Source: an uncultured Mycoplasmatota bacterium (lineage in GTDB: Bacteria > Bacillota_I > Bacilli_A > RF39 > UBA660). From it: a stretch of 64,000 nt of DNA. Location of the stretch: positions 10,885 to 74,884 of the forward strand of contig URPE01000004.1 of the NCBI GenBank assembly GCA_900549625.1. The letters run 5' to 3'. Below, piece by piece: positions 2,113 through 2,440 of the stretch. A model generated the notes under the pieces. That model was not told the DNA's origin. It saw nothing but the letters and a program-made list of their open reading frames with translations, and made no database searches. Numbering within the stretch: position 1 is the first letter of the stretch; the number at the start of each line of letters is the position of its first letter. A program made the translations under genes and the position numbers.

Positions 2113-2440
2113 CAATAAGCCTCGAACCTTTTGCTGTTGGACGTCACCTTGGTGGGGATAGTTATGAGTAAAAAGAATTTATTACCAACTTTCTATATTT
2201 TTTTACTAATTTTTTTGCAAGTCAGATTACTTTATAAAACCATATAGCATAAAGTAAATCCTCTTTTTCTGCTTACTACAAAAATACTTCTAAACAATGT
2301 GTTTAAATGTCCAAAAAATATAACCGAAGACGTTTAGCTCATGAAGACTAGAGGTTCTCTTTCTTTATTATATGAAATTGCTTTCTCTACATACATACTA
2401 GCATAAAAATGCTTGAAATAAAAGAGTAAATTTTGTAAAA
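2113..2440 (+). repeat. copy A of an unclassified ~330-bp intergenic repeat (copies B 3938-4165, C 60048-60376)
   Basis: Collinear with copy C over its whole length. Shared blocks include GATTACTTTATAAAACCATATAGCATA, ACTAGAGGTTCTCTTT, TTATTATATGAAATT and AAATAAAAGAGTAAAT. No conserved ORF. Confidence 0.8.

Follow-up and report, generated by a model that had tools for sequence, protein, structure and literature searches.

Three copies of an intergenic repeat of ~330 bp lie in the 64-kb stretch of contig URPE01000004.1 that we analysed (G+C content of 28%; hereafter the window, meaning the whole stretch). A first-pass annotation had left this repeat unclassified and described it as non-coding. 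We consider it probable that each full copy of the element is a type I toxin-antitoxin, or toxin-antitoxin-like, sense/antisense module of a new family, in which a predicted mRNA would encode a small, putatively toxic hydrophobic peptide and a predicted antisense RNA would counteract it. The weaker claim, that each full copy carries a small-protein gene together with a cis-antisense RNA, can be made with high confidence. The evidence consists of the repeat family itself, a small open reading frame (ORF) with a coding signature, conserved and covarying RNA helices, and terminator and promoter motifs on both strands. The coordinates are collected in Table 1, in which the window copies are called A, B and C (wA, wB and wC); L-numbered loci in the text are copies from other strains' contigs.

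A profile built from copies A, B and C gave exactly three matches in the window, all on the + strand, with E-values of 1e-64 to 1e-100. The three same-orientation copies had been correctly located before, including the shorter copy B with its diverged 5' part, and the shared sequence blocks and both hairpins reported for them were found again by reading and aligning the three copies. The 32-mer ACTAGAGGTTCTCTTTTTTATTATATGAAATT occurs twice in the window as an exact match, against no occurrence in 100 shuffles, and the version in copy A differs by a 1-nt insertion. When one genome per species was scanned for the core pattern (185,579 species), a single metagenome-assembled genome (MAG) matched, with 12 matches on 11 contigs. 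This MAG, CAKOMI01, is labelled "uncultured Bacilli bacterium" and comes from the Hadza gut. Its flanking sequences are 93-96% identical to the window, indicating the same species, and the element is present at its sites orthologous to A, B and C. Profile search raised its count to 13 copies, and the repeat is a genuine multicopy family. A looser pattern applied to metagenome contigs yielded 14 further loci from strains of the same species (80-96% identical), giving ~31 distinct copies in total for comparison. Within these scans, which detect near-identical copies only, the family has at least 13 copies per genome and is confined to one uncultured gut Bacilli species.

The window is identical over 7.8 kb to the human-gut assembly GCA_900772455.1, in which no gene is called at the element; the 26-aa ORF described below was passed over by gene callers. 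The first-pass annotation could place the element in no known family, and Rfam, Pfam and NCBIfam gave no match either. The covariance models of Rfam 15 at gathering thresholds found nothing at the element in the window, and the best scores in E-value mode were 24 bits against a cut-off of 41.5 bits (ssNA-helicase RNA) and 21.5 against 110 (LhrC), none of which is credible. Plasmid and phage collections (blastn, distant mode) and a pattern scan of viral contigs contained no match to the element, so there is no sign in these collections of an origin from a mobile element.

Contrary to the view that the repeat has no conserved ORF, copies A and C share a homologous small ORF that is intact in most relatives (24 of the ~30 copies in which the region is present). 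The CTAATTTTTTT hairpin noted earlier lies inside this ORF and encodes its L-I-F-L-L codons, and the GATTACTTTATAAAACCATATAGCATA block is its 3' end, encoding ...GLLYKTI plus the stop codon. The ORFs, 26-35 aa overall, form two subfamilies with M-(x)-KKD and LIFLL common to both. Subfamily 1 has 26-27 aa and the form M[ST]KKD[FL]LI..LILLIFLLVGLLYKTI or ...YAVII, and subfamily 2 has 34-35 aa and the form MKKDTE[IH]C.L.LLIFLL....LILVSKL....... Start codons are ATG, GTG or TTG, each after a GGAGG-like sequence. The peptides combine a charged N terminus (M-x-KKD) with a grand average of hydropathy (GRAVY) of 1.8-2.3 and a best 19-aa window of 3.0-3.6. Openness of the ORF in all copies was dropped as a coding test, since 11 of 20 copies also have another sense frame and one antisense frame open; we used codon-position bias and the ratio of non-synonymous to synonymous polymorphism (pN/pS) instead. 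In the better-sampled subfamily 1, variable sites at codon positions 1/2/3 number 3/3/12 and the pooled pN/pS is 0.21, and the corresponding values in subfamily 2 are 13/8/16 and 0.50. From these substitution patterns the ORF appears to be under purifying selection. Three other interpretations of the coding content were rejected. Genetic code 4, considered for two broken copies with in-frame TGA, adds almost nothing to the table 11 ORFs, which cover 86% of the window; the - strand mini-ORF MLYGFIK is the complement of the anti-Shine-Dalgarno and stop-codon region; and the frame of the - strand mini-ORF MKEISYNKKENL shifts with the length of a T-run. TGA is a rare stop codon in the window as a whole (2 of 40 long ORFs, with 27 ending in TAA and 11 in TAG).

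On the + strand, every full copy has a TATAAT-like box 6-7 nt before CGAACC, across three unrelated types of upstream flank, which places the mRNA 5' end at about CGAACC, probably at ~60057-60058 in copy C. The predicted length from promoter to terminator is 233-245 nt in 23 full copies and 224 nt in the deleted copy L021. The dominant feature in the fold of the whole mRNA (z = -7.3) is pairing between the first ~25 nt (GAACCUUUAGUUGUUAGACGUCCUC) and the 3' untranslated region (UTR; GAGGACGUCUAGC...CUAGAGGUUC), and this 5'-3' long-distance pairing is also the consensus fold of 24 copies. In these copies 98.2% of the cells in the alignment are paired, compared with 27-49% when the partner is slid by 1-3 columns. 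The helices contain one CG to AU double change, in L001b, whose two arms fit each other better than any cross-combination, and 20 cells in which a Watson-Crick pair has become G.U, a change tolerated on the + strand only. A local hairpin (GUCCUCU/GGAGGAU) that would sequester the Shine-Dalgarno (SD) sequence is predicted in all 24 copies, with the compensatory stem variants CCUC/GAGG, CCCC/GGGG, CCUU/AAGG, CACC/GGUG and CCCUC/GAGGG. As the long-distance pairing competes with this hairpin for GUCCUC, the SD is predicted by a partition-function model to be partly open in the full-length mRNA of most copies (unpaired probability of 0.2-0.5, against ~0.02 in the nascent mRNA and 0.02 with the 3' UTR blocked). 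The 3' arm of the pairing doubles as the + strand terminator, whose hairpin alone has -14.8 kcal/mol and is followed by U6. This terminator separates the element transcript from the downstream promoter; the earlier judgement that a metabolite riboswitch is unlikely is thereby supported, a role as leader of the downstream gene is unlikely as well, and of the suggestion of "a structured leader or small RNA family" the structured small RNA is retained as a prediction and the leader for the downstream gene is not. In all copies the element contains the motif TTAGACGTC, with its palindrome GACGTC, at four places, two in each orientation. The motif permits alternative pairings, for example of AGACGUCC with GGACGUCU, which could be metastable structures during transcription.

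The - strand carries its own set of signals. An extended -10 element, TGnTAnnAT, is invariant in 31 of 31 copies and lies 7 nt upstream of a hairpin at the predicted 5' end of the antisense RNA. In this hairpin 98.3% of cells are paired across the 31 copies, and the loop is GAAA, GCAA or GAGA, all of the GNRA type, in most of them. Changes on both sides of the stem were found in 7 cells against 1.9 in shuffles, and none of 500 shuffles reached 7. A-U has become G-C in 6 copies; this variant may be a single event spread by recombination, and we count it as at least one event, not six. The end pairs are G.U in 8 and 3 copies, which would be C.A mismatches on the + strand. The - strand TATAAT (complement of ATTATA, 60297-60302) was considered as an alternative antisense promoter and is less likely, because the covarying hairpin upstream of it puts the RNA start further out. 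At the other end, a T-run follows the hairpin CGTCTAAACA..TGTTTAGACG on the - strand only, and the terminator scan calls this hairpin in copies B and C. Its stem is conserved and its loop variable, and the terminator hairpin of copy C is also present in the 3' UTR of the mRNA. The predicted antisense RNA of copy C would thus run from a putative start at ~60318 to ~60211 (~108 nt) and folds into three stem-loops with z of about -5; that of copy B folds with z = -3.0. The complementarity of the antisense RNA to the mRNA 3' UTR is complete over ~85 nt, a stretch that takes in the 3' arm of the long-distance pairing. The RNA does not overlap the ORF, stopping 10-30 nt beyond its stop codon. Averaged over pairs of copies, identity reaches 0.89 in the 5' leader and 0.83 in the 3' UTR/antisense region, compared with 0.63 in the ORF, indicating that the RNA parts are better conserved than the peptide.

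Type I loci are defined by an mRNA of 150-400 nt for a peptide of 20-60 aa, usually a hydrophobic membrane peptide, and by a cis-encoded antisense RNA; the mRNA has an SD/anti-SD stem-loop and/or 5'-3' long-distance pairing and a terminator stem-loop, and in Gram-positive bacteria the antisense RNA lies on the 3' side (T1TAdb paper, PMC8594479). The element agrees with this description in the predicted mRNA length of its 23 full copies and the size of its ORFs, in the computed hydropathy and charged N terminus of its peptides, and in the computed SD hairpin (24/24), long-distance pairing (98%) and + strand terminator. On the antisense side, the invariant TGnTAnnAT, the covarying 5' hairpin and the terminator delimit the predicted ~108-nt RNA.

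The decay of the copies is asymmetric. The ORF is broken or truncated in six of them, by a stop codon (L009), a frameshift (L006), deletions (L011 and L021) or 5' truncation (copy B and L022a), and the antisense gene is kept in all six. Since the promoter, leader and start codon are missing in copy B, its toxin gene is truncated, and the ortholog of this copy in a sister strain (L001a) is full length and belongs to a different ORF subfamily. In copy A the toxin is probably weakened, as judged from the peptide composition, because Pro, Gln and Arg interrupt the hydrophobic stretch (GRAVY of 0.93, against 1.8-2.3 in other copies); its sister-strain ortholog (L003) encodes a typical peptide. The weak start codons (GTG and TTG), the translational locking, the 13 or more dispersed copies and this asymmetric decay argue for a toxic product. 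Heavy translational locking, weak starts and loss of the ORF with retention of the antisense RNA are typical of such products (PMC8594479, taken together with the present analysis).

The copies also appear to exchange segments. Three strains (the window, L018 and L007) whose flanks are 93-97% identical at the copy C site, in front of a P-type ATPase gene, carry three peptide variants there, MTKKDFLII..., MSKKDLLITF...KIM and the 34-aa MKKDTEICMLQ... type. Three ORF variants at one orthologous site point to recombination or gene conversion between copies.

We propose the following mechanism, in which the transcription of both RNAs, their ends, the toxicity of the peptide and the switch itself are inferred from these features. 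The + strand promoter 6-7 nt before CGAACC would produce an mRNA of ~240 nt encoding the 26-35-aa peptide, a putative membrane toxin whose charged N terminus (M-x-KKD) precedes a single, very hydrophobic helix. As long as the mRNA is nascent, the SD would be locked in the local hairpin GUCCUCU/GGAGGAU. In the complete mRNA, the first ~25 nt would pair with the 3' UTR, which would protect the 5' end and compete in part with the SD hairpin. The extended -10 promoter on the - strand would make the ~108-nt RNA consisting of the 5' GNRA hairpin, a middle hairpin and the terminator. This antisense RNA would pair with the mRNA 3' UTR and displace the mRNA's own 5' leader, which the antisense RNA resembles in sequence. 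Displacement of the leader would let the SD hairpin re-form and switch translation off, and the long antisense-mRNA duplex would be a substrate for RNase III, leading to mRNA decay. The antisense RNAs may also act across copies, because the overlap region averages 83% pairwise identity, and copy B, with the toxin half lost, would be an extra antitoxin gene. Trans pairing of the antisense RNA with the mRNA leader/SD region, of the kind found in par or sprA1, was also considered; its duplex energies beat those of shuffles in only some copies (L001c and L008) and did not in copy C, L005 and L018.

Several observations weigh against a type I module or weaken the support for it. Neither the mRNA nor the antisense promoter, both of which are predictions like the transcripts and their ends, has a good -35 box. 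In ~10 of 31 copies the antisense terminator contains a C.A mismatch, and the same position is G.U on the + strand. The covariation rests on few events, possibly single ones spread by recombination, within one species of low variation. The shuffle control for the long-distance pairing is modest because of this low variation: 9 of 500 shuffles reach the observed percentage of paired cells, and the double changes are matched or exceeded in 100 of 500. The predicted effect on SD accessibility is moderate and is absent in some copies, including copy C, L004 and L008. On the peptide side, subfamily 2 has the weaker coding signature (pN/pS of 0.50), other frames of the T-rich stretch are also open, so that openness alone is little proof, and the peptides have no Pfam-A or NCBIfam match, only chance-level hydrophobic matches with E-values of at least 0.1 and scores well under the cut-offs.

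The alternative that survives best accepts the gene pair and questions the toxin. The peptide could be a benign subunit or regulator of membrane proteins, or a secreted short hydrophobic signalling peptide, whose level is tuned by the cis-antisense RNA. The ORF, SD hairpin and antisense RNA fit a benign small membrane protein equally well, and one copy lies directly upstream of a P-type ATPase gene. Small hydrophobic peptides such as KdpF partner P-type pumps, and the M-KK-hydrophobic shape resembles precursors of short hydrophobic pheromones, both of which count for this explanation. However, 13 or more copies per genome beside unrelated genes are hard to reconcile with it, and neither an Rgg-type regulator nor a processing gene was seen among the window neighbours. 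An Rgg/SHP-type locus is likewise not indicated, as the window neighbours include no Rgg-family regulator and no regulator recurs beside the copies. The SD hairpin with 5'-3' locking, the GTG and TTG starts and the ORF decay with the antisense gene kept are also more typical of a toxic product. We therefore regard a benign peptide as possible but unlikely.

A still less likely explanation is that the repeat is the duplicated intergenic regulatory region of a tandem family of phase-variable surface genes, consisting of a terminator and the next promoter and lacking a function of its own. A majority of the copies do lie beside the ~455-aa paralogues with a poly-G tract described below, and in several the homology extends into the ribosome-binding site and gene start. 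Nevertheless, copies also flank unrelated housekeeping genes (AsnB/ATPase, FeoB-like, ABC transporter), conservation is far higher in the core than in the flanking promoter part, which has three sequence types at the position of the outward promoter, and the ORF, the covariation of the SD hairpin and the - strand-specific GNRA hairpin would be left unexplained.

Least likely of all, and very improbable in our estimation, is the mobile promoter or insulator cassette proposed in the first-pass annotation, a non-autonomous repeat resembling a miniature inverted-repeat transposable element (MITE) with its inverted repeats as transposase sites: the element is indeed multicopy, intergenic, always oriented as the downstream gene, equipped with an imperfect ~25-bp inverted repeat ~200 bp apart, terminators on both strands and an outward promoter, and variable in copy number between strains in a tandem surface-gene array, but the inverted repeat (5' CGAACCTTTAGTTGTTAGACGTCCTC, 3' GAGGACGTCTAGC..CTAGAGGTTC) is internal, with homology continuing at least 65 bp further left and ~85 bp further right, its changes keep pairing through G.U on one strand, which a protein-binding site would not need, the ORF bears a coding signature, plasmid, phage and viral-contig collections do not contain the pattern, inspection of the flanks at the homology ends revealed no target-site duplication, although no systematic search was made, and every comparable orthologous locus in the other strains (80-96% identical) is occupied, although empty sites may be under-sampled because loci were retrieved via the element itself.

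The type I reading that we favour does not assign the element to a described family. It belongs to none of the bsrG/SR4, txpA/RatA, par/Fst, hok/sok and aapA1/IsoA1 families, as judged from the lack of a profile or covariance-model match and from its different predicted antisense geometry. It resembles bsrG/SR4 of Bacillus subtilis (and also txpA/RatA, bsrE/SR5 and yonT/SR6) in the Bacilli host, the convergent genes, the SD placed in a short helix and an antisense RNA of ~100 nt with complementarity to the 3' portion of a short mRNA encoding a small hydrophobic peptide. These systems exist as one or few prophage-borne loci, with yonT/SR6 on prophage SPbeta, unlike the 13 or more dispersed copies of the element. 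We know of no long 5'-3' pairing in them, and the element shares no peptide or RNA sequence or profile similarity with them. Binding of SR4 at the 3' end of bsrG mRNA promotes decay and lengthens the SD-sequestering helix (PMC3834814), and such control of the SD by 3'-end binding is the kind of switch predicted for the element. The antisense RNAs of the bsrG/SR4 type overlap the ORF (PMC8594479), whereas that of the element is predicted to stop short of it, 10-30 nt after the stop codon.

The par locus of Enterococcus faecalis (Fst; RNA I-RNA II) is similar in its toxin mRNA of ~230 nt, its convergent promoters, a 5' stem-loop that sequesters the SD and a helix that sequesters the extreme 5' end of the mRNA (PMC7472228), and also in an antisense RNA without ORF overlap (PMC7472228, PMC8594479). 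The Fst signature comprises a transmembrane helix with PXXXG, a conserved Trp and a charged C-terminal tail, and the locus has a shared bidirectional terminator and DRa/DRb repeats (PMC7472228). In the peptide alignment the element lacks PXXXG, the Trp and the charged tail, and it has no Pfam match to the Fst/Ldr superfamily. It also has two nested terminators and ~85 nt of full complementarity in place of the shared bidirectional terminator and DRa/DRb, and its mRNA 5' end would be sequestered by the 3' UTR, not by a local upstream helix. With hok/sok of enterobacteria and aapA1/IsoA1 of Helicobacter pylori the element shares the locking of the full-length mRNA by 5'-3' end pairing and local or metastable hairpins that hide the SD during transcription (PMC8594479). 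Those systems reside in Gram-negative hosts, and the antisense RNA of the element differs in targeting the 3' arm of the long-distance pairing itself.

There are precedents for repeats that turned out to be type I loci. The LDR (ldr/rdl) and QUAD (ibs/sib) sequences of E. coli are multicopy intergenic repeats of a few hundred bp that attracted notice as repeats before they were shown to be type I loci encoding 18-35-aa peptides plus an antisense RNA. They are unrelated to the element in sequence, host and antisense geometry, and its copy number is higher. Bacterial MITE-type repeats such as Correia/NEMIS, RUP and BOX are also short, multicopy and intergenic, with inverted repeats and sometimes promoters or terminators that affect neighbours. 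The element differs from them by its coding ORF, its internal inverted repeats and its stable positions between strains; in addition, no target-site duplication was noticed, although no systematic search was made.

If confirmed, the element would represent a type I toxin-antitoxin family not described before, in an uncultured Bacilli lineage of the human gut that has a low GC content and no such annotated systems. It joins traits of separate families, the 5'-3' mRNA locking of hok and aapA1 and the Bacillus-type antisense overlap in the 3' UTR, and is a natural case for how antisense binding at the 3' end could control a distant ribosome-binding site. We regard it as a new high-copy family with an unusual mix of regulatory features, whose transcription and toxicity are predicted, and not as a new principle. 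A bolder proposal, to which we give little weight, is that it embodies a new regulatory logic: the antitoxin would mimic the mRNA leader, compete for the 3' UTR and toggle the mRNA between a closed form with a part-open SD and a bound form with a locked SD, with expansion to 13 or more cross-talking copies located preferentially beside poly-G phase-variable surface-protein genes, which they would provide with promoters and whose arrays they would, as recombination substrates, rearrange from strain to strain. Whether the copies regulate one another is a question prompted by their number and by the near identity of the antisense targets, and the link with phase-variable surface-gene arrays is of interest for genome plasticity. 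More generally, the case shows that a check for tiny ORFs should precede any description of "unclassified intergenic repeats" in MAGs as non-coding.

Table 1. Coordinates of the three copies and of their annotated or predicted features in the window
Feature	Copy	Position	Strand	Sequence or remark
Repeat copy	A	2103-2443	+	Profile match
5' leader and ORF	A	2123-2247	+	CGAACC at 2123
Small ORF	A	2164-2247	+	MSKKNLLPTFYIFLLIFLQVRLLYKTI, 27 aa; GGAGG-like box before the ORF, as in copy C
Antisense terminator (predicted)	A	2287-2311	-	CTTCTAAACAATGTGTTTAAATG; decayed hairpin, not called by terminator scan
Terminator and 3' pairing arm	A	2326-2368	+	GAAGACGTTTAG...CTAGAGGTTCTC plus TTTCTTT
Antisense 5' hairpin	A	2372-2387	-	From alignment
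Antisense -10 (predicted)	A	2395-2403	-	TGCTAGTAT; from alignment
Outward promoter (predicted)	A	2413-2441	+	TTGAAA-17-TAAAAT, 10/12 matches; ATG of downstream, putatively phase-variable gene at 2467
Repeat copy	B	3923-4169	+	Profile match beginning at model position 90; 5' part missing
ORF remnant, 3' half	B	3923-4004	+	...LIFLLVGFLYVVII plus stop; without promoter, leader and start codon
Antisense gene, complete (predicted)	B	4005-4124	-	-10 TGTTAATAT 4116-4124; 5' hairpin 4093-4108; middle 4050-4081; terminator 4013-4034
Outward promoter region (predicted)	B	4134-4202	+	TTGAAA 4134-4139; TTGACA 4170-4175; G10 4186-4195; TATAAT 4197-4202
Repeat copy	C	60037-60368	+	Profile match
mRNA promoter -10 (predicted)	C	60041-60051	+	TGATATATAAT; TATAAT at 60046-60051
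Long-distance pairing, 5' arm	C	60058-60083	+	CGAACCTTTAGTTGTTAGACGCCCTC
TTAGACGTC motif, examples	C	60073-60081, 60219-60244, 60259-60268		
SD hairpin	C	60079-60091	+	CCCT-CTAGA-AGGG; SD AAGGGA at 60087-60092
Small ORF	C	60100-60180	+	MTKKDFLIIILILLIFLLVGLLYKTI, 26 aa plus stop; GRAVY 1.95; putative membrane toxin
Antisense terminator (predicted)	C	60211-60244	-	GGACGTCTAAACA-CAT-TGTTTAGACG plus U-run; 13 pairs, then T-run
Terminator and 3' pairing arm	C	60257-60296	+	GAGGACGTCTAG...CTAGAGGTTCTC plus T6
Antisense 5' stem-loop	C	60302-60317	-	AUGAAA-GAAA-UUUCAU, GNRA loop
Antisense -10 (predicted)	C	60325-60333	-	TGTTAATAT
Outward promoter-like site	C	60343-60370	+	Weak; TTAAAA-16-AATAAT

The last ~55 bp of the repeat constitute a predicted + strand outward promoter for the neighbouring gene. 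The good promoter previously recognised in copy A, TTGAAA-N17-TAAAAT, was recovered by a promoter scan. This box is present in ~20 of 32 listed copies, and the others differ, with TTGCAA-18-TACAAT in 4. The region in copy B serves the gene for a 402-aa secreted protein, after which comes a sortase gene (5506-6372), and the P-type ATPase gene downstream of copy C has its own TGCTATAAT at 60428-60436. The neighbours of the copies in the window are GAPDH, a membrane-anchored protein of unknown function, the secreted protein plus sortase, AsnB and the P-type ATPase. Across the family the copies adjoin unrelated genes, namely GAPDH, AsnB/ATPase, an FeoB-like GTPase, an ABC transporter and surface proteins. 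Over half of the copies are situated either between ~455-aa paralogues with a poly-G tract or upstream of them, and in several copies the homology extends into the ribosome-binding site and start of these paralogues.

Downstream of copy A, a G10 tract (2485-2494) begins 18 nt after the ATG at 2467, which has a good ribosome-binding site, and the frame with G10 ends after 12 codons. A G9 tract would join this start to a 464-aa ORF (2483-3877) for the membrane-anchored protein. From the sequence, the gene at 2467 looks like a case of slipped-strand phase variation, currently in the OFF state. The ~455-aa paralogues with the same poly-G start occur in tandem in the sister MAG (L001, L002 and L004). 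In copy B, the G10 tract lies within a promoter spacer, with 21 nt between TTGACA and TATAAT. The version in L001a has G9 and lacks the preceding GA, resulting in an 18-nt spacer, and the downstream promoter of copy B would be subject to promoter-spacer phase variation. Within positions 1-6500 of the window, the surface-gene array consists of copy A, one 464-aa gene, copy B and the 402-aa gene. In the sister MAG (L003 and L001), the same 402-aa gene is preceded by at least two genes of the family and three elements, and no gene separates two of these elements, which adjoin each other. This arrangement suggests that recombination between elements expands and contracts the surface-gene array.

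Two of the upstream flank types have features of their own. Type one (window 60005-60055 and 8 other copies) contains a 16-codon ATG ORF, MLKSTWFDKILTFNDI, overlapping the predicted promoter. It is probably not coding, because a ribosome-binding site is lacking and most of the differences between copies are non-synonymous. Type two (L005, L006, L009 and L020) contains, ~60-110 bp upstream of CGAACC, the conserved hairpin GTACTTTCGACATTATTCGGAAGTAT followed by a T-rich run, which may serve the upstream gene as a terminator. The AAAAAGTACTT..TTCGACA motif is common to types one and two.

Concerning the host, a gene with a CotJB (spore-coat) domain follows the ATPase gene (7797-7836 in L026, corresponding to the window just after 62821). 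Together with the sortase gene, it indicates that this "Bacilli" bacterium is walled and possibly spore-forming, and not a mollicute. Elsewhere in the window, a T-box leader (18812-18994) scores 95.5 bits, just above its gathering score of 93 bits, and two divergent tRNA genes are located at 29029-29101 (-) and 29205-29275 (+).

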